Shown in pieces: positions 3,444 through 46,177 of a stretch of DNA of 64,000 bases (positions are counted from its first letter, which is position 1; every line of letters begins with the position of its first letter). Location: the IMG/VR virus record IMGVR_UViG_3300048060_000074; one strand, given 5' to 3'. The notes beneath the pieces are model-generated. The model ran no database searches. It saw nothing but the letters and a program-made list of their open reading frames with translations, and was not told the DNA's origin. Both the position numbers and the translations under genes were made by a program. This stretch comes from a virus.

Positions 3444-3685
3444 GGCGCTTCCCCTTCCTGCCGGGCGGTGATTGCCTTGACTTCCAGGCTAAGTAGGACG
3501 GAGAGCTCGCCGCGACTGATGAGGTTGCACAAGGCTTCTGCTTCCGTATTGTTCAGCCTGATATCCACTGCGCCGTCATTGGAGCACAGGGCGCCATTGA
3601 CGTAGAGAATAAGGTAGGTGCGGAGGTTCACGCACCTTTTCGAGACAGGGAGATAGACCCAATCGGCCAATGCGTTTTTATTCAT
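3440..3685 (-). CDS. hypothetical protein
   Basis: coupled ORF MNKNALADW. Confidence 0.55.
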   Translation of the reverse strand: MNKNALADWVYLPVSKRCVNLRTYLILYVNGALCSNDGAVDIRLNNTEAEALCNLISRGELSVLLSLEVKAITARQEGEAP

Positions 3686-4691
3686 TGCTATCGCCTTGCG
3701 TGCTGGCAACTGGAACGTCATCGCCGATCACCTTGATGACCTGCGAACGAAACACAGACCAGTCCACGCCAGCATTCTCGGCCTCGATCCTTGCCAGTCT
3801 TAGGCCCTGGCAGGCCGCGCTGACCTTGGCGCTGACTTGGAATTTGATCATGTTAAGGCTTGACGGTTCCTGTGGGGCGGTCAATTCTTGCACTGTGGGG
3901 ATGTCGGCTTGTGAAGAGGGGGCGGCTGCTTGAAGTTGTTGGCTGGCCGGTCCCTGTGTAAGATCGGTCGGTTCCGGCAGCAACGTGTTTGCTATGGACT
4001 GCGCCTGTTTAAGCATCGGCAGCCTGGCGACTTGCGCCTTAATTGCCTCGACGGTGCGCTGCCCGGCAGCCAGCAACTCGGTCGTGAAGGTGTCCTGATC
4101 GTCCTGGTCAACCTTTGACGCGATGATATACGCCTGGCTGTGGTCGATATCCCCGCGTATTACGGCCTCCCGTATCTCTCCGTTGAGCAGCTTCTCGTAC
4201 ACCGTAACCCGCTGCGAGACGTAGGCGCGGCTGTAGCCGATGTGCAGGGCCACCGCGCCCTTTCCACCTTCGCCGAAATCTTTGTCATACGCGGCGGCCA
4301 TCTCTGCGTAGTGGCGGCCTTCGTCCACGGGGTTGACCGATTCGGCATGCAGATTGTCGATTGCCATGCTGCCGATCTCGTCGAACCGGCTCTTGGGGCG
4401 GGACATTCGGGAGGCGGTAACCCACTGGTCTTCCCTTGGGGTTTCGAGGCGGCTGTACGCTTCCTTGGCGGCCTCGATCCGTCGATCTCCGGCGAGGCAT
4501 TGCTTCACGGTCTTGCCGCCGTCTTTTTTCAGATAGTACAGAATGGGGCGGAAATTCGGCGACTCGCCCGAGCCAATGCGGTCCATCATTTGCACGACCA
4601 TTGCCTCGAACTGGGCGTTCCGAACGATCTCCGATCTAAACCCATTCAGTACCAGATCCCAAACGTTCGGTTTCTGCGGATAATCACTCAC
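3678..4691 (-). CDS. parB: ParB/Spo0J-family CTPase and DNA-binding protein
   Basis: LAGDRRIEAAK (GxxR box), IDNLHAESVNPVDEGRHY, HTH-like AVALHIGYSRAYVSQRV. Confidence 0.8.
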   Translation of the reverse strand: MSDYPQKPNVWDLVLNGFRSEIVRNAQFEAMVVQMMDRIGSGESPNFRPILYYLKKDGGKTVKQCLAGDRRIEAAKEAYSRLETPREDQWVTASRMSRPKSRFDEIGSMAIDNLHAESVNPVDEGRHYAEMAAAYDKDFGEGGKGAVALHIGYSRAYVSQRVTVYEKLLNGEIREAVIRGDIDHSQAYIIASKVDQDDQDTFTTELLAAGQRTVEAIKAQVARLPMLKQAQSIANTLLPEPTDLTQGPASQQLQAAAPSSQADIPTVQELTAPQEPSSLNMIKFQVSAKVSAACQGLRLARIEAENAGVDWSVFRSQVIKVIGDDVPVASTQGDSNE

Positions 4692-16547: not shown

Positions 16548-17102
16548 TTAGGTCTCCTCCTGTTTCTCTCTGTACTGCACGGCGAACACATCTGTTGAGT
16601 CGCACTCGACAGAGAACTCATACTCGTCGTAAAGGTCGGCGCACTGCTCGCGCCACAGCTCGTCGTGATAGGCTTCTTCTGAGCCCATACCGTCACAGGT
16701 AGGGCAGATAGCCGGGAAGGCGCCGTCGCCGCCACAAGCATTACAGACAAAGGTCTCGCCATCCGGGCGGACAGTGGTATGGAAATCGTTTACGAGGGAA
16801 TGGATCACCACATCGCGCGGCTCGTTTCTTCTCTTCATCAGGTCGGTGACAGAGCGGTACTTTCTGCCCTCGCATATGTTGCAAGTCTCCATATCGGTGG
16901 GGTGCGTGCCTTTGCCACCGCAAGTAGGACACGGTGTCACATTCGAGCGCGCCCAAGGCGTATAGAATTTACCCGACGGCCAGATCATGCGTCCCAGGTA
17001 AACGGCGCGTTGTTCTTGGTCATCGTTGCTCCATGTTTCTTGTTCGAGCGCCTTCTTGACCAGTTCCGGGTCAAATCCCAATTCGATCTGAGGTTCGCAC
17101 AT
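16548..17102 (-). CDS. protein with DnaJ-type CxxCxGxG zinc-finger repeats
   Basis: CPTCGGKG, CNICEG, CNACGGDG, CPTCDGMG; AAGGAG RBS. Confidence 0.75.
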   Translation of the reverse strand: MCEPQIELGFDPELVKKALEQETWSNDDQEQRAVYLGRMIWPSGKFYTPWARSNVTPCPTCGGKGTHPTDMETCNICEGRKYRSVTDLMKRRNEPRDVVIHSLVNDFHTTVRPDGETFVCNACGGDGAFPAICPTCDGMGSEEAYHDELWREQCADLYDEYEFSVECDSTDVFAVQYREKQEET

Positions 17103-17154
17103 TTCATTCTCCTTGCCGGGTGTAACGCCGGCGCTAATCAAACTATTCAGCGAG

Positions 17155-17218
17155 TCGCTCCAGCCAGAATCGAACTGGCAATTGGCCATCGTCTAGGTTA
17201 CTAGAATACTCTGGAGCG
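17155..17218 (-). ncRNA. tRNA-like mini RNA (acceptor stem + T-arm, no anticodon arm)
   Basis: CGCTCCA/TGGAGCG 7-bp stem, GCCAG-TTCGATT-CTGGC T-arm, discriminator A; only 32 nt between the arms. Confidence 0.45.
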
Positions 17219-28656: not shown

Positions 28657-29160
28657 TCATTCCTTTTTCTCCTCCTCATACCTTTTCCGCAGCGGTGACT
28701 TGAAGGCGTAATCTGCTGCCAGTTGCCTGTATCGGGTCGGAGGGTCTTCTACATATCCGCCATAGACACGTACCTTGTGCTGCCGCAGAAACTTGTCCGC
28801 GAACCACCGGCGGGCCAGTTCTCCATGATCGTCGATGATGTATCCTCTGAACGCGCGGGCCATGTCCTCAAACCTCGACATGGGAACAAAAAAAACCCTG
28901 TTGCCGGTCGCGATGGATTCAACGGTTAGGTGGGATGGGCTGAACAACAACAGCGTCCTGCGTCTATTTAGGATCGAGAGTAGGCGTCTGAGGTTTTGCT
29001 TGGCCTCGTCGGACAAATACGTTATGTACATAGCATCTTTTGGGCAGCCCTCCTGGTCTTCTAGAAAGTCCGCCGCGTAATGCAGTGCGCTGGTCGTCTT
29101 TCCAGCCCCGCGCCTGTTGTAGATACGAACCTTTTCAAGCCTTTCAAGGTCTGTTCTCAT
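28657..29160 (-). CDS. small P-loop NTPase-like protein
   Basis: NRRGAGKTT Walker A; IIDD possible Walker B. Confidence 0.55.
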   Translation of the reverse strand: MRTDLERLEKVRIYNRRGAGKTTSALHYAADFLEDQEGCPKDAMYITYLSDEAKQNLRRLLSILNRRRTLLLFSPSHLTVESIATGNRVFFVPMSRFEDMARAFRGYIIDDHGELARRWFADKFLRQHKVRVYGGYVEDPPTRYRQLAADYAFKSPLRKRYEEEKKE

Positions 29161-30779: not shown

Positions 30780-31553
30780 TTACTCATTGCCTGCTCCGTT
30801 TCCGCCGCTGACCACCAGCCACGATCCCTGGTTAGCTTCGGTCTTCCAGTTGTACAATGTGGTCTGTGACGGGCTCTTCTCCCACTCCGCAAGGGCCAAA
30901 GCCCGCACATCCTCTTCGACAAATGGCCCGTTCGTGTTTTCCAGGGTGGGGTACTTGGCCCTCCACCACCCGATACCGGGCGCACCTGGTCGGCGCGTGG
31001 CCGCTTCTGGTTCAGTCTTGACCACCTTCTTCTCAGAGGATCTCTTAGGAGGATCTCTGAACTTGCCATCCTGAATGGCAGTGGCCCAACTTGCACCCGC
31101 TCCCATCACAGGTTGAATCAATGCAAAGAACAAGGGGGCCAGAAACCCCACATCCACACCAGTGAACGGGACCAAGATGGTCGCTTTCGGTACAGAGCGG
31201 GCCAACTGCCAGGCAGAAGTGGCCCAGGAGGCAACTGCGTTGAACACGACGAACCCGAGAATGGTGTAGCTGTACCTCAACTTCCTCTCACTCTGACCCA
31301 CTCCCTGGTGAATCCGACCAAACTTGTACACCAGGTAGTCAGCCATCAGGTCAAGAAAGAACGCTAATGACTTGCCGTATAGCTCTGCGTGGTCACTTCC
31401 GACCATCGCGCTGGCCCAAAAAGAACCCTCGATTGGCAGCGCAAAGAACGAAGTGGCCCGAGCGGCCAACATCAACCCGTACTTGTTAAGAAAATGTCCT
31501 GGGATTGCCAGAAACCCTTCGATGCCGAGGATGAGTTTTTCAGAGGTGGTCAT
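30780..31553 (-). CDS. multi-pass membrane protein with C-terminal HTH-like segment (Spd/DUF2637-like architecture)
   Basis: about four hydrophobic helices, Lys/Pro linker, then WEKSPSQTTLYNWK. Confidence 0.55.
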   Translation of the reverse strand: MTTSEKLILGIEGFLAIPGHFLNKYGLMLAARATSFFALPIEGSFWASAMVGSDHAELYGKSLAFFLDLMADYLVYKFGRIHQGVGQSERKLRYSYTILGFVVFNAVASWATSAWQLARSVPKATILVPFTGVDVGFLAPLFFALIQPVMGAGASWATAIQDGKFRDPPKRSSEKKVVKTEPEAATRRPGAPGIGWWRAKYPTLENTNGPFVEEDVRALALAEWEKSPSQTTLYNWKTEANQGSWLVVSGGNGAGNE

Positions 31554-31729
31554 TGGATGGCCTTTATGTATCCCTCTGCCTGGATCTGCACCTCTTTGAC
31601 CTTATTAGGGATAATGTGCGAGGAAACGGAGGACCCCGGCGCTGTGCAATATAGGATGCGTATCATCTCGGATGTGTAGATAAGAAATTGAAGTACTAAC
31701 GTTTGAAATATGGTCATTCTTTCTCCTCG

Positions 31730-31745
31730 TTTTATACGTGTAAAA
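31730..31745. promoter_or_regulatory. 16-bp palindrome TTTTATACGTGTAAAA
   Basis: after stop at 31758, before GAGGAG RBS of a small ORF starting at 31716. Confidence 0.9.
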
Positions 31746-31757
31746 TCGCGTCTTTAG

Positions 31758-32069
31758 CTACCGCTCGACGACCTTGCCGAGAAAGTCGTCCCACTGCGAC
31801 TTGGCCACTGTGCCCTGGAGCTTGAACTGGTTCTGCCCTGCCGGTTGCATCCAGACGGACACCCGGTCCCCGACGACAAGGACGTAGTGCTGAAACTGCC
31901 CGGTCTCGTGCAACGCCAGGTGCAGGACAAAGTTCTCTGCCTCCAGGCCCGAGCTACGGGCCTCCAGGACAATCATTCGTTTGTAGATGGCATCGATCAT
32001 CTCCGCCGTCAACGGAGTTTTGTAGGCAGCGTCTCGATTCCGTTCCAGTATGTCAAGTGCTACACTCAT
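31758..32069 (-). CDS. hypothetical protein
   Basis: 103-aa ORF downstream of the 32.2-kb promoter. Confidence 0.65.
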   Translation of the reverse strand: MSVALDILERNRDAAYKTPLTAEMIDAIYKRMIVLEARSSGLEAENFVLHLALHETGQFQHYVLVVGDRVSVWMQPAGQNQFKLQGTVAKSQWDDFLGKVVER

Positions 32070-32197
32070 GTGTTTTCTGCAAGAGGGCCGCTTGGGGGCT
32101 GCGGCCCGTTGTTAAAGAACTCAGACGGCTACTCTTGCAGATCCTCCTTTCCAGTTTGCTATGAATAAAGTCAGTTCGTGATTTCCCCCACAATTCT

Positions 32198-32226
32198 ATT
32201 ATACTCGTTTTCCTGACATTTGTCAA
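32198..32226 (-). promoter_or_regulatory. consensus sigma70 promoter
   Basis: TTGACA-17-TATAAT. Confidence 0.9.
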
Positions 32227-32242
32227 GATAGTTTTTGGGGAA

Positions 32243-32271
32243 AAGGGGGCAGTCGAAAAAACTGCCCCCTT
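32243..32271 (-). terminator. intrinsic terminator
   Basis: AAGGGGGCAGT/ACTGCCCCCTT stem followed by TT on the minus strand. Confidence 0.7.
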
Positions 32272-32276
32272 ACAAG

Positions 32277-32498
32277 CTACGCATTCATGGCGCGGACAGC
32301 GACTATGCCTGCCCCAACCACGCCCCCGGTTATCAGGTACAAGGCAGCCCAGAACGCTCTGTCGAGTGATTCAGGAACGGGGCTTCCCATAAGAATCATC
32401 GCAAGGTACGTACCTACAATGCCGAGCACGACGATGAAAATCAGGATAGTGCCATCCTTGAGTAGTTCCCAAAATTTGCTCATGTTGATCTCCTTCAC
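32277..32498 (-). CDS. small two-TM membrane protein (holin-like size)
   Basis: AAGGAG RBS before MSKFWELL; two hydrophobic helices. Confidence 0.6.
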   Translation of the reverse strand: MKEINMSKFWELLKDGTILIFIVVLGIVGTYLAMILMGSPVPESLDRAFWAALYLITGGVVGAGIVAVRAMNA

Positions 32499-32814
32499 AG
32501 TATGAGCGGACCCTCATCCTTCCGCCGGGTCCGCTTGACGACTTGAACTTGCTTTGCCGACACGCGCAGATTCGGCCTTAGCATCCACGTGCCACTTTTA
32601 ACGACGTCAAACCCGGCGACTCCTATCGCGACAACGGCTCGACGGATCAGCTTCCAGATTTCCTCGATGACCTCCGGGTGATGCTCGCGGATTTCCTCTA
32701 TCGACAGATCCATCCAGCCTGGGTGGCGACCCTTCCTGGATAGCCTCTCAGCTTTGACGTTCTCTATATACGTTGGCAGCAAAAACGCTACGGCCTGATC
32801 GATCTCTGTTTCGT

Positions 32815-33531
32815 TCATATTACCTCCGGGGGCGGCAAGCCGCAACCATAGATACTTCCTGGCGCCCGCCTCGAAGGAAGGCAAAGTGGCGAAAGCCCGC
32901 GATACGAAAGCGGCCAAGAAGGGTCGAGACGAAATATTGGCATGAGCGGGTCGGGGGCGCTGCACGGGGTACTTTCAATGGCAAAGTCTGGGTCGTGGCC
33001 GGTGATAGCCACCAGTGCCAGGCTCTTTATTACACGTGTAATGTTCCGGGCCACCGTACTTTCTGGCACACCCATCCTAAGCGCATACATCGCATACAAG
33101 TCCGCAAGCGGGCTTCTCCCGACATGCTCGAATTTGTCACGGAATTTCTGCTCGCGCACGTGTTCGGACCACATCCATGGGCTCTCCCGTCGCACCGCGA
33201 CCGAATAAACAAAGCCGTCGCCCTCTCGCCCCGCTGCATCCCACGATACTTCGTACACGCCCTCAGCAGTCTTGGCATCGGGCAGGTTGAACTCTGTTGG
33301 CCTCGTATCGCCAGGGCTGCGGAAGATCGGGTCGACCCAGTCCTTAAAGGCATCTTGGTACGATGTGGCAAACACCTTGTCGAACGGGACTTTCTCGCAC
33401 TCGTGTTCTTTTTGGATCTCGCTGGCCGCCTCCGGCAGATCCAGCATGTCTTTAATCGTGAACGAGTCTACCTTTTCTCGGAATTTCGTGACCGCGACCG
33501 TCGTCGACGGCGCAAGTTTACTTTCTTCCAT
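32815..33531 (-). CDS. hypothetical protein
   Basis: AGGAGG RBS; MEESKLAP. Confidence 0.7.
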   Translation of the reverse strand: MEESKLAPSTTVAVTKFREKVDSFTIKDMLDLPEAASEIQKEHECEKVPFDKVFATSYQDAFKDWVDPIFRSPGDTRPTEFNLPDAKTAEGVYEVSWDAAGREGDGFVYSVAVRRESPWMWSEHVREQKFRDKFEHVGRSPLADLYAMYALRMGVPESTVARNITRVIKSLALVAITGHDPDFAIESTPCSAPDPLMPIFRLDPSWPLSYRGLSPLCLPSRRAPGSIYGCGLPPPEVI

Positions 33532-34004
33532 GTGTTGCCTCCTATCTTTTTGATTCCCGATTCTAGCCTGTCGGAGCCAATGTGTAATAAATCGGCTACG
33601 AGCAAGCCGGAGAATAGTTTCCCAAGTACCCAACTGTACGTCCAAATCGTTCTAAAGGCGTACAGCCACGACAATTTCCATAGCATAAGGGCAATAATTA
33701 TCGTGGCGACCGGGACAACCGCGAGAAGTGCGAACCTGATCAGAGTGCCGTATAGCGGTCCGTGCGATATCTTGCTTCTGTGTGGCACGATCTCGGCATA
33801 CTCATCCACGAATAACAACCTGCCCAACCACCCTAGCGCGCCAGGGTTCAAGTCCCAGTCTGGGCTCACCTTCAGCCCTACGAAACACCCAACCGGGATG
33901 AGGATATTCGTTATGTCTCCTGTGAGAATCGGTATCGCAGAAAGTGCAACGACCCCGATTATCGTCTGGTTTCTATGCCCCAGATTCCCTTTGTAGTTCG
34001 GCAT
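33468..34004 (-). CDS. DUF2227-like metal-binding membrane protein
   Basis: H..., SPDWDL, PHRSKISHGPLYGTLIR, LHIGSD. Confidence 0.75.
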   Translation of the reverse strand: MPNYKGNLGHRNQTIIGVVALSAIPILTGDITNILIPVGCFVGLKVSPDWDLNPGALGWLGRLLFVDEYAEIVPHRSKISHGPLYGTLIRFALLAVVPVATIIIALMLWKLSWLYAFRTIWTYSWVLGKLFSGLLVADLLHIGSDRLESGIKKIGGNTWKKVNLRRRRRSRSRNSEKR

Positions 34005-34482
34005 TTTTTTCCTTCCGCCTTGCTTCTCGCCCACGATAAGTGAGCCAAATTTCCCGCCGTCTCATCGCATCTTCTACATTCACGAGCCAAATCTTTCTCG
34101 GGCATCGGCGTCCATCTGAGAATATCGAGACGGCGGCTATTTTTCTGGCCCTGACCTTGTCATCACCTATCCAACTGTAGATGGTCATCTCTGGAACCCC
34201 GATCTTTCCAGACAGCTCTATGATCGGCAGTTCATCGCCCTCGTCGTATTCTACTTCTGGAAAGGTGGCTTCAAACGCTGCTATGCCCTTTCTTTTCTGC
34301 TTCAACCTGTATACTTTTGTGGCGTACTCTGCTGCGAACCTTGGGCACAATGCTGCCAGTAGTGGATCCACGACGGGGAAAAGCCCATTTCTCACTGTGA
34401 ACTTGCCAACCTCGATACCGTTTTCCTCTACGTAGGCCCTGGCCTCTGGCGAGAGAATCATGGCGTCAAAGTGCTCGATCAA
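33973..34482 (-). CDS. HTH DNA-binding protein
   Basis: LPIIELSGKIGVPEMTIYSWIGDDKV; TTG start overlapping upstream stop. Confidence 0.6.
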   Translation of the reverse strand: MIEHFDAMILSPEARAYVEENGIEVGKFTVRNGLFPVVDPLLAALCPRFAAEYATKVYRLKQKRKGIAAFEATFPEVEYDEGDELPIIELSGKIGVPEMTIYSWIGDDKVRARKIAAVSIFSDGRRCPRKIWLVNVEDAMRRREIWLTYRGREARRKEKNAELQRESGA

Positions 34483-34694
34483 GGCGTCCTCATCGGCCCG
34501 TTGCAGCGTGGGCAGATTGCATGTTCTTCTCGGAACACACACCCGCAGTACCAACACCTGTATGTAGGATTTGGTGCAACCAGTCGATCAAGGAAATGTG
34601 CACGGTGGTGGTCACTATGAATTGCATACGTTGCAGTACCAAAAAGGTATGTCGTGTCAAAAGGACGTCTATCTACAAGGCCAGTTATCTCCAT
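34479..34694 (-). CDS. zinc-ribbon protein
   Basis: CWYCG...CPRCNG. Confidence 0.6.
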   Translation of the reverse strand: MEITGLVDRRPFDTTYLFGTATYAIHSDHHRAHFLDRLVAPNPTYRCWYCGCVFREEHAICPRCNGPMRTP

Positions 34695-34723
34695 GTTCCC
34701 AAGTCGCCGCTGCCCAACTAATC

Positions 34724-36085
34724 TCACACCACTGCCTCCGGGTGATCCTGCCACTGCCCGGACCCGATGAATTGCTTTAGTTTGAGCACGCCGTCCACGA
34801 GAGCACAGCCTATTTTGGAATTCCCGCCCTTCTTGGCCGGGCCAACGAGCACCCCCGCGGCGTAATAGTTTCTGTAGGCATGTCTGATGTCCGCCTGAAT
34901 GACGTCTCTGGTCTTCCCGTCAACTTGCCTCGTCATCGAGCCCCTGACGTTCTTAAAGGCGTCCGTCTGTCCGGTCGCCTTGTCGCCGACTCGGCGGTTT
35001 GCCGCAATCTCTTTCCACAACCGATATCGCCAGTCGGAAAAGTCGGATATCTCGGCGGCTACCAACTCGTCTATCTCGCCTGGCTGGACGAGTAGTGATT
35101 TGCCTCTTTTTGGACGGGACATTTCGTCAAGTATGAACTCGCCCTTGGCTACCGGCAATTTTTTTGGCTTGTAACCAAGAACCACATCGGCCTGTGCTGC
35201 TGTTCGTACCCGGAAACATATTCGCCTGTCAAAGTTGATAGTGATCGTTTTTGGAATAATGTCAAACCGTGGATATTGGGTCGCGTAAACCAGGTGAATC
35301 TTTGCCCCTGCGGCCTGCATGGCAAGAGTTTTCATGGCCTGGATGCCCGGGTTTCGGTGTTCGTTACCTTCCACTGTGATTTTTCCGACCTCATCTATAA
35401 TAAGAATTGTGGGCCTGCGATCCGACTTTCTCTCGAATCTCTTCTGGGCCTCAATTCTTAGATCGACTAGCAACTTCATTGCCTCGTTCATGTCCCGAAC
35501 GTAGACACCAAAAGCCCCAAACTTATACAATTCCTCGTCCATGTCTGCTTTCAGGTCTATAATGTAGATGATCGGTCGCTGCGCTTTTGGTTTTGCGCAG
35601 AGCTGTATCAAGATAGATAAGATTTCATTGGTTTTACCCGTTCTGGTAAGACCGGCGACGAGGGTGTGCCCATCGCCCAAGTCGACTGTGATCGGGCGCC
35701 CCTTTCGGTCGTATCCCAAAATAACCGAGAGGGAACTTTTGGACAAATTCGGGTGCGTGGCTGCTACGTCAAGGCTGCGGGCAGCCACCGGCGGGCCCTG
35801 CGGCGCGGCCCTCTTGTCTTCCTCGATCTGCTTTTGCCACTTGCCGATGCGCTTCACCGTCTTCACGGCACAAACCACGACGAGGATGATTATCGTCGCG
35901 ATTATGTACTGAACCTTGGACTTGAACGTGCCGTTCCAGGCAACAGCGAGCAGGAACATTGCTGCTGGAATACCGAAGACCCAGCGCCAGCCAATATCCC
36001 TGGCGATGTCTCCTGGCAAAGCGACGAGTGCAACGATGGCCGCCGCAAGCAATACCCACGAGCCGAACGCTATGGACTTTTTCAT
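34724..36085 (-). CDS. FtsK/SpoIIIE-family ATPase with N-terminal TM helices
   Basis: three hydrophobic segments; HTLVAGLTRTGKT, IIDLK, LIIDEV, IHLVYATQYP, RRICFRV, GEFIL. Confidence 0.85.
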   Translation of the reverse strand: MKKSIAFGSWVLLAAAIVALVALPGDIARDIGWRWVFGIPAAMFLLAVAWNGTFKSKVQYIIATIIILVVVCAVKTVKRIGKWQKQIEEDKRAAPQGPPVAARSLDVAATHPNLSKSSLSVILGYDRKGRPITVDLGDGHTLVAGLTRTGKTNEILSILIQLCAKPKAQRPIIYIIDLKADMDEELYKFGAFGVYVRDMNEAMKLLVDLRIEAQKRFERKSDRRPTILIIDEVGKITVEGNEHRNPGIQAMKTLAMQAAGAKIHLVYATQYPRFDIIPKTITINFDRRICFRVRTAAQADVVLGYKPKKLPVAKGEFILDEMSRPKRGKSLLVQPGEIDELVAAEISDFSDWRYRLWKEIAANRRVGDKATGQTDAFKNVRGSMTRQVDGKTRDVIQADIRHAYRNYYAAGVLVGPAKKGGNSKIGCALVDGVLKLKQFIGSGQWQDHPEAVV

Positions 36086-36702
36086 TGCGGGTTCCACAAC
36101 CATTTGTTGAGCATCTGTTTCACAATTTCCTTTTCCATCTCTGCCGGTATCACATCGCGCGAAGTCCAGTCCCGGAGATTCTGAACGAGGAATTGATCCT
36201 CTGTCTCAGGCTCTAGCTGCTTGAACGTGATGGGGGCCTTCTTGATCTCCTCCATGAGCCTTAGCGGTACACGCTCTCCCTCAAAGTACACGTGCTTGTT
36301 TGAGCTCGCTTTTACACGTGTAAAACCCAAGTACTTTTCGTGGATCCAGCGTTTCTCTTCGGTCGCAATCGCGTTGATGTCGTCCCCCTTGTTGTGCTCG
36401 CACAGTATACCTTTAAGGCGACGCAATGTCGATTTTCCTCTGGGATAATCCACGATTATCCACCACTCTGCATTCCACCTGGCGATCTCCATTGCCAGGG
36501 GGATTGCGAGAATGAGGAGTGGGGGGATCGCCATTGCATACAGGGGGCGATAGAGGAGGCCAAGCCCTACCGAGACAGATAGCGAAATCGCAAGCCACCA
36601 AACAAAATCTGCCACTTCTTCGACTAGCTCGAACCAGTGGCGGCGGGTGGCGTATCTTAGCTTAGTGCCCTCAGGAGGGCGCCAGTTCTTGGGCAGCTTC
36701 AT
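36082..36702 (-). CDS. membrane protein, PH-domain-like C-terminus
   Basis: two TM helices followed by a beta-rich soluble part; start uncertain. Confidence 0.5.
   Translation of the reverse strand: MKLPKNWRPPEGTKLRYATRRHWFELVEEVADFVWWLAISLSVSVGLGLLYRPLYAMAIPPLLILAIPLAMEIARWNAEWWIIVDYPRGKSTLRRLKGILCEHNKGDDINAIATEEKRWIHEKYLGFTRVKASSNKHVYFEGERVPLRLMEEIKKAPITFKQLEPETEDQFLVQNLRDWTSRDVIPAEMEKEIVKQMLNKWLWNPQ
36310..36325. promoter_or_regulatory. 16-bp palindrome TTTTACACGTGTAAAA (intragenic)
   Basis: exact match inside a coding frame (GFTRVK). Confidence 0.8.
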
Positions 36703-36973
36703 GATAAATCCTTCGGTAGATTTCGAGAACTCGGCGATATCCCAACTTGAAAAAGATACGCCCATCGCGGATTTCAATGCCTCGGTTGAGGCTGATGCTC
36801 TCGTGTGCCCACTGCTTGGATCGTTCACAGATCATTGCGATCTGTTGGTAGGTAGGGCATTTTCCGCCTGCCATATCTTTGTACATTGCGGTTGCATAGG
36901 TGATTCTGTCGCTGCCGCTCAGAGAGCGGAAAACGCTATCGTCCTGTACCGCCTTGGCGATTCTTTCAAACAT
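36671..36973 (-). CDS. small HTH-like protein
   Basis: CPTYQQIAMICERSKQWAHESI. Confidence 0.5.
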   Translation of the reverse strand: MFERIAKAVQDDSVFRSLSGSDRITYATAMYKDMAGGKCPTYQQIAMICERSKQWAHESISLNRGIEIRDGRIFFKLGYRRVLEIYRRIYHEAAQELAPS

Positions 36974-37328
36974 AGATCGACCTCTGAAATACCCACAAAA
37001 TTCCGACGTGGCGACCGCTGAGGGTGTACACGTCACGTCGCTTGGCGAACTTGCGAATCATGCCGTTTCTCCACAGGTTGTGGAGGATTGCCTGAACGCT
37101 TGTAAATTGTGCCGCTGCCGGATGGAGCGACGGCAGCCCAATCATCCAAAGCGTGCGAATCATGCCTGTTTTGTCTCTCAGCAACTCGTATACTTCCTGT
37201 CTCTTGTAGCCGAGGGACGGATCGACGAGGCCATCCAGCCGCTCGATTGCCATCCTCGACGCCATGAGGTAGGTCTCCATACTTGTCGGGTACAGTTCAA
37301 GGTACGTCGGCTTCATCACTTCTGGCAT
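36966..37328 (-). CDS. hypothetical protein
   Basis: MPEVMKPTYLE. Confidence 0.55.
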   Translation of the reverse strand: MPEVMKPTYLELYPTSMETYLMASRMAIERLDGLVDPSLGYKRQEVYELLRDKTGMIRTLWMIGLPSLHPAAAQFTSVQAILHNLWRNGMIRKFAKRRDVYTLSGRHVGILWVFQRSIYV

Positions 37329-37421
37329 CGTTTTTCCACGACATGTAGAACAGAAAGACCGCAGCCACGAATCCGCCTGACAGACAGGCCCCGGCGTGTG
37401 TAAGAACAAGAACCACGCCGG

Positions 37422-37940
37422 CTAACCACTTCGGGATAAAGAGTTCCATGCTCTTTCCTTGTGTTTGGCCCTGGTCGCTAGGGCGATGGCTACGGCGTCA
37501 GCTTCGTTGTCGTCGGAAAGCGCAAGCCCAAATTGGCTGTTGATAAAGCGGAGCACTTTTTCTTTGTCGGCCCTTCCGTCCCCCGTGGCTGCCAACTTTG
37601 CCGTTGATGGCTGAATGCCATGCACTGGCAAGTGGTGGAAACGGGCCGCTGCCCGTATTGTGGCCCACGACTTGGCGAGGGCGATCACTGTCTTTGCGTT
37701 CATTTTTAGAAACGGCTCCTCGATGCCCACTACCGCCGCGTGTGGCTGCGCAGAGAAATTGGCGAACATCTCAGAACACATAGCAAACAGTATATCTAGA
37801 CGGTTTTCCATTGGAATTCTGCTCGTTCCAAGCCGCCACACCCCGCTCCGCCTGTAGCGGTCGCCGAAAAGCACACACCACCCGACGTTGTTCTGGGTGC
37901 CGTTGTCTATGCCGATACTGTAGAATTCCTGTCGTGGCAA
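37422..37940 (-). CDS. ruvC: RuvC Holliday junction resolvase
   Basis: IGIDNG, GIEE, PSTAKLAATGDGRADKEKV, SDDNEADAVAIAL; start likely TTG 37940 rather than 38099. Confidence 0.9.
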   Translation of the reverse strand: MPRQEFYSIGIDNGTQNNVGWCVLFGDRYRRSGVWRLGTSRIPMENRLDILFAMCSEMFANFSAQPHAAVVGIEEPFLKMNAKTVIALAKSWATIRAAARFHHLPVHGIQPSTAKLAATGDGRADKEKVLRFINSQFGLALSDDNEADAVAIALATRAKHKERAWNSLSRSG

Positions 37941-37945
37941 TGCGA

Positions 37946-38125
37946 TCAAAACGCTCTGAACCTTTCTGTGCCTGTCGCCAGGCGAATAACCGTCAACGCA
38001 ATAGAGCAGACAAAAAATGCCACGGCGGCGATAAATGCGCGTTCTGGATAGTCGTTGCCGAATACCCAGACAGCAGAGAAAAAGATTGCGGCCAGCCAAC
38101 TTATCCCTAGAAGGATGTTAAGCAT
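37946..38125 (-). CDS. small membrane protein
   Basis: AAGGAG RBS; two TM helices. Confidence 0.6.
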   Translation of the reverse strand: MLNILLGISWLAAIFFSAVWVFGNDYPERAFIAAVAFFVCSIALTVIRLATGTERFRAF

Positions 38126-38854: not shown

Positions 38855-38883
38855 AGTATACCACCCTTCCTGACATTTGTCAA
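38855..38883 (-). promoter_or_regulatory. leftward sigma70 promoter of the divergent pair
   Basis: TTGACA-17-TATACT. Confidence 0.85.
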
Positions 38884-41400: not shown

Positions 41401-43065
41401 TTGGCAAAGTCTCTCTCCAGGCTGGTCAGCGAAGAACAGCTAGAAGAACTCAAGAAGTGCAGCCAAAGTGTCATCTATTGGCTTACCAAGTATGTCTACC
41501 TAAGACATACTACTCAGGGGAAGATTCCTTGGGACAAGCCATACCCGTACCAGGTAGAGTTTCTTGAAGCTCTAGAGCGTGGTGAGGATGTTCTGTGTTG
41601 CAAGTCCCGCCGTGTTGGGGCGTCCTGGACAGCGTGCGCGTTTGTTCTATGGCGGATTATGTTCCGCCCGGATATCACCTGCCTATTGCTGTCCAGAAAA
41701 CAAAAACTTGCCGAGGGGTTGCTCGTCAGGGTAAAGTTCATCCTGAAGCACCTGCCGGAGTGGATGCGCCCGAAGGTGGTTGCCCAGAATAAGAGTGAAA
41801 TTGTCTTTCGTTTCGTCTTTCGTGGTAACGTTGGCGAGTCAAATGTCCTCTCCCTCACCACCACTGACGACAGTGGCAGAGGCGAAGACGCCGCCGTGGT
41901 GCTAATGGACGAAGCGGCGTTTATGCAGAACGCCGACGACGTTTGGTCGGCGATTGGCCCGACGGCGGCCTTTGGCGGGCAGAGAGCAGTCATCTCGACG
42001 CCAAACGGGGTCGGTGGACTTTTCCATAGATTGGTCTCCGAGTCTCGCCTTGGGGTCGACAACGGGTTCACCTACCTTGAGGCCCATTGGAAAAGGGACT
42101 GCGGCCTTTCCGATGAGTGGTACGTTAGAGCCACGCGCGGAATGGGCCTGCTCAAGAAACAGCAGGAATTCGGCCTGGTGTTCCTGTCATCTGGCAGGCC
42201 ATTCTTTGACCTGAATGCGCTGAACCGCTGCTACAAGCCGACTAGCAGGTTTCCCGAGATTGCATCGGCGATGTGCAAAACGGCAATGAACTTTGGCGGT
42301 GTTGATACGTCGGAGGGGCATACGCTAGCCGATGGCGGCCAGCCAGATTTTCATTCGATCACCATACTCAACCAGTACGGTGTTCAGATTTATCAGTACT
42401 CGAACAACAAAATCAGCCAGAGAGAGTTCTCTGGCTACACCGAGCGACTGCCAGATGGACAGGCCGTCGAGGTGGAGAGCGTTCCAAGCAAGATACACCG
42501 GGAGTATCCAGGGATGATGGCTATCGAGCGGTGGGGGAGCGGCGATATAACCTACGCCCACCACCAGGTGCCTCTTGATGGGCGGTCGAACGTCGTAGCC
42601 CGCAGGCAGACCAACTCGTCGAAAATGTCCGGTCTAAACGCGCTTCGTCGAATGATAAACGACGATGCGATAGTGATAACGGACCAATTCACTTACCATT
42701 GCTGTACGACGTTCGAGGACCAGACTTCTGGAATCGTCCAGAAGGCTGCTGCCTCGAAGGGGTCATTCGACGACCCGGTGATCACCCTAATGCTCGCCGC
42801 GCGTGAGTGGGAGCGGTGGGGTGGCTACCAGTTCGATCTTACATCTATCGGCCAAACATCAGGGGGACAAAGAGCGGTCGGGCTGCGCCAACAGTCCGAT
42901 ATGGCGCAAGGTGATTTGGCAAAACTTTTACCAGTTGGAACAATTGCGCAGGGCCCGCTTTGGCAAGAGCGGGAACCATTCGAGCCCGGGGAAGGCAATC
43001 GGAGGTATAGCGATGACATCGACCTCGTCCGCAGAGGAAAAAAGATGCGTCCGACCGGGCTGTAG
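41401..43065 (+). CDS. terL: terminase large subunit
   Basis: KSRRVGASW Walker A, VLMDEAAF Walker B, ISTPNG, nuclease GVDTSEG and SFDDPV. Confidence 0.93.
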   Translation: MAKSLSRLVSEEQLEELKKCSQSVIYWLTKYVYLRHTTQGKIPWDKPYPYQVEFLEALERGEDVLCCKSRRVGASWTACAFVLWRIMFRPDITCLLLSRKQKLAEGLLVRVKFILKHLPEWMRPKVVAQNKSEIVFRFVFRGNVGESNVLSLTTTDDSGRGEDAAVVLMDEAAFMQNADDVWSAIGPTAAFGGQRAVISTPNGVGGLFHRLVSESRLGVDNGFTYLEAHWKRDCGLSDEWYVRATRGMGLLKKQQEFGLVFLSSGRPFFDLNALNRCYKPTSRFPEIASAMCKTAMNFGGVDTSEGHTLADGGQPDFHSITILNQYGVQIYQYSNNKISQREFSGYTERLPDGQAVEVESVPSKIHREYPGMMAIERWGSGDITYAHHQVPLDGRSNVVARRQTNSSKMSGLNALRRMINDDAIVITDQFTYHCCTTFEDQTSGIVQKAAASKGSFDDPVITLMLAAREWERWGGYQFDLTSIGQTSGGQRAVGLRQQSDMAQGDLAKLLPVGTIAQGPLWQEREPFEPGEGNRRYSDDIDLVRRGKKMRPTGL

Positions 43066-46000
43066 TCGCACTCTTAACAAGGGGAAATTGTACTGTAGTT
43101 CTACGTGCTTTGCCCTGGACAGGCCACGAAAGAAAATGTTGCGCAGCGCCGCGTCAGACATGTCCTCGGCAGTTCACGAATGGATACCGGAGGCACAGAG
43201 AAACCAGCTAGTTTCGATGGTTGGCGCTGGCCCGGCGACGGTCGTGCTTGAGGAGATCGCCTATTCTTTAGAGCAGCGCAAGCCGATAGCGGCTCCCCCG
43301 CTCGACCTGCGACGAACTCGGTCCGGGTATGCAGACGGCGACCGCTTCGGTATACTCCAGATGAGCAACGGGAGATCGTATAGGCCGGACGATTCGTTGA
43401 GCTATACGACCATCGACGACATGTTGACGAATGGGCATGTTCTCTTTGCTCTCAACATGAAGCTCGCCGGGATTCGTAGCGTACTGCGCGACGACCGTTC
43501 GTGGGTCGTGCGATGTGAGGATAAGCGAATCTCGCAGACCATTCGAGGCATCATGAACTGGGTGTTCCGTAGGTACGCAAAAGAGATGCTTCTCTCTATG
43601 GCTTATGGCGCGTCCTTCTTTGAGAAGGTCTGGACGTATAAGCCCGCTTCATACTGGGGCATCGAGGGCACGCGGGGCAAAGTCTACGGCTATGACGCAT
43701 TGCTTTCCTGCCATCCAAGGTCTATTGCCCACATCAATTACACTGATGACGGGCAGCACTTCGATGGGTTTACTCAGTCTCCGAGCGGTATTGTAGCCGG
43801 GCCAGGCACAACGCCGGTGCCGGCAGAAACCGCCCTGGTCATTACGTATGACAAGAGATGGAGGAACCTGTGGGGGAATCCTGGATTCGATCCAGTGTAC
43901 CCGTTATGGTTCTGGTTGGAGGTGACGCTGCGCTCGTTTCTGCGTTACTTGGAGCGCACTGGAACACCCGTTACTGTTTGTTACGCGCCAGGGCACGGCA
44001 ATACAATGGCGCCAGACGGGACGTTGTATGCCAACCTCAAATATGCGCAATTGGTTGCAGGGTACGTTGCAAAGTCGAACGCCATTGCCATTCCAAGCGA
44101 CGTCGACCCGGACACCAAACAGCAGCTTTGGCGGTTGGAATACCTGGCGGATGACAAGCGGGGCGATCAGTTCGTCAGAGCAATCGAGGTCTTGGGCACG
44201 CTGATTGCCAGGGCGATGATACTTGCCGACCGGGCGACGATGCAAGGCTCGGAGGTGGGGAGCTACGCGGCATCAGAGACGCACATGGCTGCCACGGTGA
44301 CACACAACGAGTTGGTGCTCGACGAGCTTTTGATCCAGGTAAACGATTATTTGGTCGAGCCGATTAGGCGGTATAACGGCACGCAGCGCACGCCTAGGGC
44401 CTGGATCGAGACCGCAACGATGGACCCGGAGGCCAGGGAGCGACTATTCAAGCTGCTATCGACAATGGGCAACCAACAGGGCAGCGATGCGATGAAGCAG
44501 GTTGACTGGGCCGCGATTATGGAGGTCATGAGGGTCCCTGTCAAGTCGCCTGAGGAAATCGAGCAGGATTTCCAGGACGAACTCAAGCACACCGAGGAGC
44601 GGAACAAAATGCTTGCCAAGTCTGCGGAACAGGGGGCAGGCGCTCCGTTTCCAAAGAAGGGACAGGGGCCAGAGGCGGAAGCCAAGCAAAAACAGGCAAC
44701 GGCGGAAAAGGTCAAGCAGTCTGCGGATTGGGCATTGTACCAGGTATCCAGCGGCGCGACTGTGCCGTTGATGGTGACTGGTGCGCAAGCACTGGAGATT
44801 GCAGATCGGTTCTCGGAGAATCCCAGCTATTTTTTTTCGAGAACGACCGACGGCTTTGATGCTCAGGTAGAACGTATCGTCGAGCAGATTATGTCTGAGG
44901 TCGAAGGCGTCGAAACAGCCAGCCCGGAGGACATTCAAAGGCTGCGAGAGCTTATCCTGCGAGAGATTGGGTTGTCTGACAGTTCGGCCAAGTTGGAATA
45001 TGACGACCTAGATTATGACGCCATCGAGCTTGCCTTGGGTGCATGGCTCAAAGAGGCTTGGAAGAAAGTCAAACAGATAGCCAGCAAGGTAGTGAAGGCG
45101 GTTACCGGCAGGACGCCGCAAGAATGGAAGAAGACTAGGGAGACAGGAAGCCGAGGCGGGGTGACGGTAACGAGAGCAGATGGAACGACTTATACGTGGA
45201 GATCTGAGGACCATCCGAGAGATGCCAGTGGGAAATTTGCAAAGAAGGCGGCGGCTGATTCAGAAGGCGGCGAGGCTGACGAGAAGGGGCTAGTTGAGGA
45301 TATTCCAGATCTCTCTGGCCCGGAGCATCCGCCAAAGCCGCCACCGCTCACCTCCCTCTTTTCAGAAGATCGGTGGGAAACGCCGAGTGAGTTTCCTGAT
45401 ATCGAGAATGCCAGCGAGGTCAGGACTATAACGGTGGATGGACTGTCGTATGCAGCCATTGGCGAGATAGACCCCGAACTGTTTGCTTCTATACACGAAA
45501 CGAGGGCGGGAATGGCCGAAAAGTCAGAAGGTCTCTATGACGGCCTTGAGCCTGTGCACCTGACAATATTGAATATGGAAGACACTGCCTCCATGGCGTC
45601 CGCTCTTGGTGTTAGCGAGGATGATGTCAGGTCTTATGTAGAAGAAACCGGCGGGCAAATGGCCGTGTTTGGAATGATGGGCGGCATCACGATTGATGAT
45701 AAGCTGGCACGTGAATCCAAGGAGATGTTTGAAGTGGTATTGTACCATGAGACATTGCATGGGCAATCTAGAGAGAACGGATCCGTGATGGCAACTTTCA
45801 CATACGATCCTGATGAAATATGGACTACATTGCTTACTATGGAATATGCCCAAAAACATGGATTGCCGGAGGTGAATGGGTACCCAACGTGGACATCCTG
45901 GGCAGTTCAAGCGGCGGACAATCTCGGATGGAGTAAGCAAAAGTTGTTTGACTATGCAGAAAGAGCGCATAGACTTGGTGGAACGGATTCCAAAGAGTTG

Positions 46001-46177
46001 GTGGGTGCTCTTTTGGAACAAGCCGACGTGAGTGGCGGCACCTCTGAGACGAGAGACCGCAGATACAAAGAATCTCTCAAAGAAATGTTCCCAGAGTGGG
46101 AAAACGATACAAAGGCACTTGCCTCTGTGTATGGAATAGACGTGGATGATTTTGTCTCCAGTCTGTGGGGTGAATAA
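43013..46177 (+). CDS. portal protein (DUF935/Mu gp29-like) fused to an N-terminal Zn finger and a C-terminal HExxH domain
   Basis: GGAGG RBS at 43001; core with NLWG...YPLWFW...FLRYLERTGTP; EDHPRDASGKF; VLYHETLHG. Confidence 0.8.
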   Translation: MTSTSSAEEKRCVRPGCSRTLNKGKLYCSSTCFALDRPRKKMLRSAASDMSSAVHEWIPEAQRNQLVSMVGAGPATVVLEEIAYSLEQRKPIAAPPLDLRRTRSGYADGDRFGILQMSNGRSYRPDDSLSYTTIDDMLTNGHVLFALNMKLAGIRSVLRDDRSWVVRCEDKRISQTIRGIMNWVFRRYAKEMLLSMAYGASFFEKVWTYKPASYWGIEGTRGKVYGYDALLSCHPRSIAHINYTDDGQHFDGFTQSPSGIVAGPGTTPVPAETALVITYDKRWRNLWGNPGFDPVYPLWFWLEVTLRSFLRYLERTGTPVTVCYAPGHGNTMAPDGTLYANLKYAQLVAGYVAKSNAIAIPSDVDPDTKQQLWRLEYLADDKRGDQFVRAIEVLGTLIARAMILADRATMQGSEVGSYAASETHMAATVTHNELVLDELLIQVNDYLVEPIRRYNGTQRTPRAWIETATMDPEARERLFKLLSTMGNQQGSDAMKQVDWAAIMEVMRVPVKSPEEIEQDFQDELKHTEERNKMLAKSAEQGAGAPFPKKGQGPEAEAKQKQATAEKVKQSADWALYQVSSGATVPLMVTGAQALEIADRFSENPSYFFSRTTDGFDAQVERIVEQIMSEVEGVETASPEDIQRLRELILREIGLSDSSAKLEYDDLDYDAIELALGAWLKEAWKKVKQIASKVVKAVTGRTPQEWKKTRETGSRGGVTVTRADGTTYTWRSEDHPRDASGKFAKKAAADSEGGEADEKGLVEDIPDLSGPEHPPKPPPLTSLFSEDRWETPSEFPDIENASEVRTITVDGLSYAAIGEIDPELFASIHETRAGMAEKSEGLYDGLEPVHLTILNMEDTASMASALGVSEDDVRSYVEETGGQMAVFGMMGGITIDDKLARESKEMFEVVLYHETLHGQSRENGSVMATFTYDPDEIWTTLLTMEYAQKHGLPEVNGYPTWTSWAVQAADNLGWSKQKLFDYAERAHRLGGTDSKELVGALLEQADVSGGTSETRDRRYKESLKEMFPEWENDTKALASVYGIDVDDFVSSLWGE

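Follow-up and report, generated by a model that had tools for sequence, protein, structure and literature searches.

Genes for FtsK/SpoIIIE-like proteins are common in Bacillus and Mycobacterium phages, and the studies that describe them assign these proteins no demonstrated role (PMC3706429, PMC6316719). Those of the Cluster J mycobacteriophages, such as gp203 of Omega, are presumed to bind phage DNA and to translocate along it (PMC3706429), and in SPP1 an early-region FtsK/TrwB-like ATPase, gp32, is syntenic with the small membrane proteins gp31.1 and gp31.2, with which it has been proposed to form a transmembrane translocon, its role being unassigned (PMC6316719). Two plasmid systems share the same kind of motor. 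In the Streptomyces plasmids pSVH1 and pIJ101 and in the integrative and conjugative elements of actinomycetes (AICEs), TraB is a single motor of the FtsK type that associates with the membrane and has an additional C-terminal domain; it is encoded together with translationally coupled small membrane proteins, the Spd proteins (PMC4447253). The Clostridium perfringens plasmid pCW3 pairs its coupling protein TcpA, an FtsK-like ATPase (PDB 6O1W-6O1Z), with TcpI, a protein of the YdjM family. Here we describe a membrane-anchored ATPase of this superfamily encoded in a 64-kb stretch of viral DNA (IMG/VR record IMGVR_UViG_3300048060_000074, hereafter the window). The window is part of the genome of an uncultured tailed phage of about 89 kb; the same proteins recur on a contig of 89,481 bp. 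The ATPase gene is accompanied by those of two membrane proteins, and this trio is conserved across the phage lineage in the same way as the large terminase (TerL) and portal genes.

The ATPase gene lies on the minus strand (34724-36085) and encodes 453 amino acids from the ATG at 36085; the reading frame is open to 36103, and the ATG, which creates an ATGA overlap with the gene upstream, is probably the true start. The initial annotation had called the product a transmembrane (TM)-anchored FtsK/SpoIIIE ATPase, and this holds: it matches Pfam PF01580 (FtsK_SpoIIIE) above cut-off (2.4e-6) and phrog_1358 (7e-34), and a hydropathy scan reveals three hydrophobic helices at its N-terminus, in addition to a long stalk helix. 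An AlphaFold model built from 38 family sequences (pLDDT 92) assigns helices 5-28, 39-59 and 64-99 to the membrane segments and stalk, followed by a RecA-type beta domain at about residues 106-355, which is the single ATPase domain, and a C-terminal domain at 356-459 (model numbering). The latter shows a helix-helix-helix-hairpin-helix topology (pLDDT >90) that is conserved within the family. The Walker A (GLTRTGKT) and Walker B (LIIDEV) motifs and the sensor ATQYP (ATQxP, with its Gln) are all intact. In structural comparisons of the model, FtsK and TcpA score above secretion ATPases. Chromosomal FtsK/SpoIIIE proteins (PDB 2IUT, 2IUS, 6T8B) differ in that the phage ATPase has no alpha domain and, by sequence, no gamma domain, is only 453 residues long and stands far from them in the tree; as to alpha, no FtsK_alpha Pfam match was found, and in the structural alignments the first part to align is the beta domain (from model residue ~106). 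We mapped the positions described for Pseudomonas FtsK (PaFtsK; PMC7321959) onto 69 family members. At least one N-terminal hydrophobic segment is present in 68 of the 69, and the pore-loop region retains basic residues: His, Arg or Lys occupies the S634-equivalent position in 53/69, Arg the T648-equivalent in 60/69 and Lys or Arg the R649-equivalent in 68/69. The corresponding basic residues of the window ATPase are R279, K285, R293, R294, R298 and R300.

An exhaustive HMMER search returned about 70 representatives of 380-470 residues; they align with the query over the full length at 27-40% identity and rank above thousands of generic FtsK matches. In an unrooted maximum likelihood tree of 161 motor domains these sequences form one clade (SH-aLRT 93). 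This clade leaves out pIJ101 Tra (whose domains are FtsK_SpoIIIE and a MarR-type winged helix-turn-helix), the TraSA-like protein of a pSAM2-type AICE, TcpA, TcpB and E. coli FtsK, and also the FtsK-like proteins that mycobacteriophage Omega and the Bacillus phages BSP18 and Anath encode. It attaches at the long-branched, plasmid-type end of the tree, close to a protein from a Streptomyces plasmid and to TcpA and Tra, and far from chromosomal FtsK; the deep nodes are long-branched and weakly supported, and we give this placement little weight. The phylogeny thus does not bear out an ATPase of the TraB/TcpA type. The TraSA-like reference sequence comes from an AICE inserted in a 680-kb linear plasmid of Streptomyces sp. 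NBC_00045 (651594-664202) that carries GntR regulators, a small open reading frame (ORF), an FtsK-like Tra, a replication initiator, an HTH/Xis gene and an integrase. We also noticed a second coherent FtsK-like family of about 610-620 residues, 23-24% identical to the query motor and devoid of the two partner genes, on contigs of 5-27 kb from JGI sediment metagenomes (L011-L014, L016, L018 and L020-L024).

No close relative of the ATPase was found in cultured phages or plasmids, where the best matches are 25-30% identical and cover the motor only. Cultured phages do have FtsK-like proteins (PHROG 1358; Herelleviridae such as BSP18; Anath; Omega gp203) that share with it the ATPase superfamily and the phage context, but these are 25-28% identical in the motor only and fall outside the family clade. 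Omega gp203 differs further in having an FtsK alpha domain and, according to PMC3706429, no membrane anchor. SPP1 gp32 is also different: it has 836 residues and no TM segment of its own, and it is non-essential (PMC6316719); its sequence was compared only through the tblastn search, which gave no close match in a cultured phage. All family members that we looked up come from metagenomes. The lengths of their longest contigs bunch at 74-95 kb, none of these contigs is chromosome-sized, and the members whose surroundings can be seen belong to phage genomes. Scans of IMG/VR with single proteins, namely the ATPase and a 257-residue membrane protein encoded farther left in the window, gave no match. 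Phage FtsK/SpoIIIE-like proteins as such are known; the present one belongs to a distinct family, not described before, that has a membrane anchor and a C-terminal domain of its own and two obligate partners.

The genomic context was compared in seven distinct loci of the family that include sequence upstream of the ATPase gene, the window among them, and these loci belong to four large phage genomes and the short contigs L008, L009 and L010. The three other large genomes (IMGVR_UViG_3300029267_002158, 3300028030_000008 and 3300031949_000012) are L001/G001 (73.8 kb, CheckV completeness 100%), L002/G002 (85.7 kb, 90%) and L035/G003 (95.3 kb, 100%). Upstream of the ATPase gene the window encodes a protein of 206 residues on the minus strand (36082-36702, from the ATG at 36702; ORF open to 36828), predicted to have two TM helices followed by a beta-rich cytoplasmic domain; its stop codon overlaps the ATPase start (ATGA). 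A homologue of this partner precedes the ATPase in 7/7 loci (the window, L001, L002, L008, L009, L010 and L035), and the stop/start overlap (ATGA or GTGA) is found in five of them, one or two small genes parting the two in L002 and L035. The insert in L002 (9364-9903) encodes an Rv2179c-like 3'-5' exonuclease and that in L035 (5469-6000) consists of two small ORFs. The partner had been described as a PH-like membrane protein. The two TM segments and the position upstream of the ATPase stand, whereas the PH label found no confirmation, as none of the seven members has a Pfam match and a PDB sequence search was empty. We suspect a PH-like fold in the cytoplasmic domain; its Atlas neighbours DUF6232, YgfX and bPH_2 reach TM-scores of 0.36-0.39 only, with a poor model (pLDDT 0.41).

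The third member of the trio lies downstream of the ATPase (33468-34004, minus strand) and encodes a DUF2227/YdjM-type integral membrane metal-dependent hydrolase of 178 residues (PF09988, 4.7e-12; score 46.6 bits, cut-off 25). Such a gene follows the ATPase within 0.4-1.2 kb in 4/4 large genomes (the window, L001, L002 and L035), and the motifs H, PDxD, HR, SH and D..H...D are conserved in the four phage copies, several of them being common to TcpI of pCW3. Neither the partner nor the DUF2227 gene is present in about 45 further FtsK-like loci taken from viral and metagenomic collections, and the loci of cultured phages showed no BLAST or phmmer similarity to the ORFs of the window module. Across the compared loci of 13-21 kb, the only genes common to the window and all three other large genomes are TerL, portal and the trio. 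Since the trio is conserved like TerL and portal, we regard it as a core module of the lineage and not as an accessory one. In all four large genomes the packaging genes are divergent from the ATPase and lie 3-5.5 kb away. Thus, the grouping of the ATPase with membrane proteins in one module, made in the initial annotation, is sustained for the partner (7/7) and the DUF2227 gene (4/4), which are far from being unlinked in the relatives, as their linkage is conserved; it fails for the membrane protein gene at 30780-31553.

Comparison with the plasmid systems is of interest because the initial annotation had read the locus as a TraB-like ATPase with Spd-like proteins. As described above for TraB, the phage motor is membrane-associated, bears a C-terminal domain and is encoded with translationally coupled membrane proteins. 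However, it falls outside the TraB clade, it is carried by the genomes of tailed phages, and none of its neighbours resembles SpdA, SpdB, KilB or the Tcp membrane proteins of pCW3. A phmmer comparison of all module ORFs with the pIJ101 and pCW3 membrane proteins gave only noise (<8 bits); the Spd proteins have no Pfam model, so that a distant homology is possible. No GntR-type partner (TraR/KorA, kil-kor) was recognized among the neighbours scanned with Pfam and NCBIfam, whereas the pIJ101 and AICE reference loci do have one, and no clustered 8-bp repeats resembling clt, to which the C-terminal winged helix-turn-helix of TraB binds, were found in the window. With pCW3 the locus shares the pairing of the motor with a YdjM-family protein. 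Yet TcpI is not required for pCW3 transfer (PMC6137059), and for this reason we give the parallel less weight as a functional clue. The phage family also forms a clade separate from TcpA, and the scanned neighbours include no relaxase and no VirB4-, VirB6- or VirB8-like partner.

Nearly every window gene left of about 39 kb is on the minus strand, and the rightward structural arm is headed by TerL (41401-43065) and the portal gene (42803-46177). A promoter-like site on the minus strand at 38855-38883, with 11 of 12 consensus positions and an extended -10 element, heads the leftward operon that contains the module. With its place in this first leftward operon and a strong promoter-like site ahead of it, the trio is probably produced early. 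A second sigma-70 promoter-like site (TTGACA-17-TATAAT, 12/12; 32198-32226, minus strand) starts another leftward unit. Because it separates the ATPase operon from the genes that include 30780-31553, the region flagged in the initial annotation (30780-37940) corresponds to two putative transcription units and not to one. Most early genes of the window have no family match in Pfam, PHROG or NCBIfam scans, and no tRNA genes were found in the 64 kb. A scan of one genome each from 185,579 species found no prophage copy of the ATPase family; it returned only generic FtsK matches, in two actinobacterial metagenome-assembled genomes, and therefore gives no clue to the host. Neither a tyrosine integrase nor ParB (ParB_N) was found in the three complete or near-complete relatives G001-G003. 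Together with contigs of 74-95 kb that are never chromosome-sized, this makes the lineage look non-integrating and probably virulent.

With somewhat less than even confidence, we favour the reading that the module is an ATP-driven pump for double-stranded DNA (dsDNA) that acts at the membrane on the genome of the phage itself. Transcription from the strong leftward promoter-like site would make the trio early in infection. The ATPase, as an FtsK-type RecA-fold motor, would assemble into a ring anchored in the cytoplasmic membrane through its own N-terminal helices, and its lineage-specific helical/hairpin C-terminal domain may bind DNA. The two-TM partner, co-made through the overlapping stop and start codons, would form a complex with the ATPase, and the YdjM/DUF2227-type membrane metallohydrolase would accompany both. 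Such a pump might draw in the remaining genome after a first part has entered the cell or, alternatively, might act on replicated genomes, moving them or holding them at the membrane or septum. DNA is favoured as the substrate because the nearest folds belong to DNA pumps, because the pore loops are basic and because the C-terminal domain is placed like the DNA-recognition domains of FtsK and TraB. A complex is favoured because the linkage is obligate and the genes are coupled by start and stop codons. The translocon proposed for SPP1 gp32 with gp31.1 and gp31.2 (PMC6316719) sets a precedent for a proposal of this kind.

Several observations weigh against this reading. The arginine finger (R620 of PaFtsK) is Ala in the window ATPase (35310-35330, minus strand; residues ~262-268). 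The position is Arg in 65/69 family members and also in FtsK, TcpA and pIJ101 Tra; Ala is likewise found in the TraSA-like AICE protein and in phage Anath. The sole possible substitute in the window ATPase is a Lys three residues past the finger position, which is found in only two family members. In most members loop I lacks the K657/R661 pattern of FtsK and is not basic, and the subfamily with three helices has an ambiguous membrane topology. An hhalign comparison of the family C-terminal domain with a gamma alignment made from long FtsK representatives gave a probability of 0.2%, with no PF09397 match, and a profile search of PDB sequences found no related solved structure. Since this domain shows no sequence likeness to gamma or to solved structures, DNA binding by it can be proposed from its topology only; an Atlas structure look-up produced sub-threshold leads. 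No family member was found in cultured phages by tblastn. Candidate loading sites fared no better, as no oriented or clustered over-represented 8-mers of the clt or KOPS kind were found in the window. A 16-bp palindrome, TTTTAYACGTRTAAAA, occurs there in 14 copies (0 expected) between 5273 and 57004, in four variants, of which the two asymmetric ones are reverse complements of each other. It was rejected as a target of the motor, being absent from the loci of the relatives, which have no ParB_N match either. As the palindrome network and the ParB-like gene of the window (3678-4691) are not common to the loci of the relatives, the module is not tied to a plasmid-like partition system. A 144-bp terminal repeat of G001 was likewise rejected as marking real genome ends, because it is probably an overlap from circular assembly.

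In a more specific form, which we consider doubtful, the ring, the two-TM adaptor and the metallohydrolase would be a phage-encoded trans-membrane DNA machine that moves the genome across a membrane, either into the cell after partial ejection or between compartments or cells. One way in which it could do so is as a genome-import motor. The early operon would be the first part to enter, its products would come together at the site of entry and a ring of the FtsK-like protein would pull in the rest, with a logic like that of the second step of T5 or the pulling of T7 and phi29. The conservation of the module on a par with TerL and portal agrees with this, as do the membrane anchor and membrane partners, which suit an entry pore, and the arrangement of the operon, which in the four large genomes diverges from the packaging genes at a distance of 3-5.5 kb from TerL and in the window lies behind a strong early promoter-like site. 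However, nothing ties the module proteins to tail or ejection proteins, and no phage is known to use an FtsK-type import motor. We therefore rate import as rather unlikely. It overlaps with the pump at the membrane that we favour, and so does the next alternative.

According to that alternative, the ATPase would take part in membrane-tethered DNA metabolism together with RuvC and further early proteins, acting on intermediates of replication or recombination or in genome segregation, and no DNA would move across the membrane. A gene for a RuvC-type Holliday-junction resolvase (37422-37949, end approximate, minus strand; PF02075, 2e-11, 44.4 bits against a cut-off of 22.2; phrog_159, 1.2e-25), which the initial annotation had noted near the ATPase along with the DUF2227-like protein, both rightly so since each exceeds its Pfam cut-off, lies four genes upstream of the ATPase in the window and in L001. 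A Metallophos protein of the Mre11/SbcD type and the ParB-like protein are encoded in the same arm as the module, and the presumed translocation of the Cluster J proteins along phage DNA (PMC3706429) would be a precedent. The tasks could include branch migration, clearing of concatemers, keeping genomes from closing septa or moving genomes into spores. Yet no RuvC was detected beside the module of L002 or that of L035, the relatives lack ParB and the palindrome network, and it would be left unexplained why a membrane anchor and two membrane partners are so strictly conserved; we find both the general proposal and these particular tasks unlikely.

It appears more improbable that the module does not pump DNA at all and is instead a single-motor relative of the type VII-type secretion ATPases that exports a phage protein, or a membrane device for exclusion or counter-defence. 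A loop I that is not basic in most members, a C-terminal domain unrelated in sequence to known DNA-binding domains and the match of the motor to the FtsK-like PADLOC models mad8 and SspH would all be in keeping with such a device. Against this, the model scores better with FtsK and TcpA than with secretion ATPases. Unlike EssC/EccC, the phage protein has a single ATPase domain, and the NCBIfam EccCb/EssC models are far below cut-off. No WXG100-like or FHA partner was recognized among the scanned neighbours. Moreover, exclusion genes are usually accessory, whereas the trio is conserved like TerL and portal.

Finally, the conjugation-like spread suggested in the initial annotation, by which a TraB-like ATPase and Spd-like proteins would push dsDNA through the septa or contacts of a filamentous host without lysis, has in its favour the parallels in architecture and coupling with TraB and the spd operons, the attachment of the family at the plasmid-type end of the tree, the pairing of TcpA with a YdjM-family protein in pCW3 and an earlier speculation that phage SpdB2 homologues spread phage DNA (PMC4447253), but it is very improbable in view of a clade of its own, to which neither Tra nor the TraSA-like protein nor TcpA belongs, of the missing likeness to SpdA, SpdB, KilB and the Tcp membrane proteins, of the lack of a GntR partner among the scanned neighbours and of clt-like repeats in the window, of the dispensability of TcpI (PMC6137059), and of relatives that are complete or near-complete tailed-phage genomes with no tyrosine integrase or ParB, no chromosome-sized contig and no prophage copy in the 185,579-species scan.

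That a membrane-anchored motor and its two obligate membrane partners are conserved like the terminase and portal points to a core step of infection at the membrane, and the set of three proteins is now defined for expression and testing. If the substrate is the phage genome, as in the pump that we favour, the module would be a new viral use of a septal-type DNA pump, outside capsid packaging, for entry, segregation or transfer; if it is not, the trio would represent a minimal one-motor secretion or exclusion device.

The gene at 30780-31553 (minus strand) encodes a membrane protein of 257 residues with four predicted long helices and a small C-terminal helical domain resembling a helix-turn-helix (HTH). 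The initial annotation had described this combination of TM segments and HTH correctly, and had considered a relationship to SpdA/DUF2637. For the latter we found no support: there is no match to PF10935 or any other Pfam family (E <= 0.1), nor to PHROG or NCBIfam, and an hhalign comparison with pIJ101 SpdB gave a probability of 0.06%. The protein has four metagenomic homologues. Its C-terminal domain carries a conserved TTLYNW..EA motif, and the AF2 model is poor (pLDDT 51). Being behind its own promoter-like site and absent from the relatives G001-G003, the gene is outside the conserved module. A multi-TM protein with a C-terminal HTH_11 domain in L001, encoded between the ATPase and the DUF2227 gene, has a similar build; no sequence relationship between the two was found.

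The remaining genes near the module are all on the minus strand. Directly after the ATPase comes a zinc-ribbon protein of 71 residues (34479-34694) with CxxC...CxxC motifs and weak Pfam zinc-ribbon matches; an analogous Cys-rich ORF of 73 residues occupies this position in L001 (11286-11507). Between it and the DUF2227 gene lies a protein of 162 residues with an HTH-like motif and no family match (33973-34461), at the position taken in L001 by the multi-TM HTH_11 protein. Upstream of the ATPase, the stretch between RuvC and the partner contains a small conserved protein of about 120 residues (36966-37328) without family match and with homologues in L001 (8635-8970) and L008 (22-414). A small HTH-like ORF of about 100 residues (36671-36973) has a weak match in L010. 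The hydropathy scan also pointed to a hydrophobic protein of 50 residues (37297-37449) and a two-TM protein of 59 residues (37946-38125), each with a sequence resembling a ribosome-binding site upstream, and it confirmed the small two-TM protein that had been reported at 32277 (32277-32483, 68 residues), which ends the first leftward unit and has a weak match to a holin family (0.017). No counterpart of this protein or of the other small membrane proteins was found in the relatives. Farther left, an ORF of 167 residues (28657-29160, minus strand) shows a Walker A-like motif (GAGKTT) and no Pfam or PHROG match. The promoter-like site at 32226-32198 is followed, about 450 bp downstream, by a copy of the 16-bp palindrome (31730-31745), and about 6 kb downstream of the ATPase of L001 we noticed three tandem units of about 37 bp (17090-17200; core TGACTACACGAAACGAGAC), which could be iterons or another binding array.

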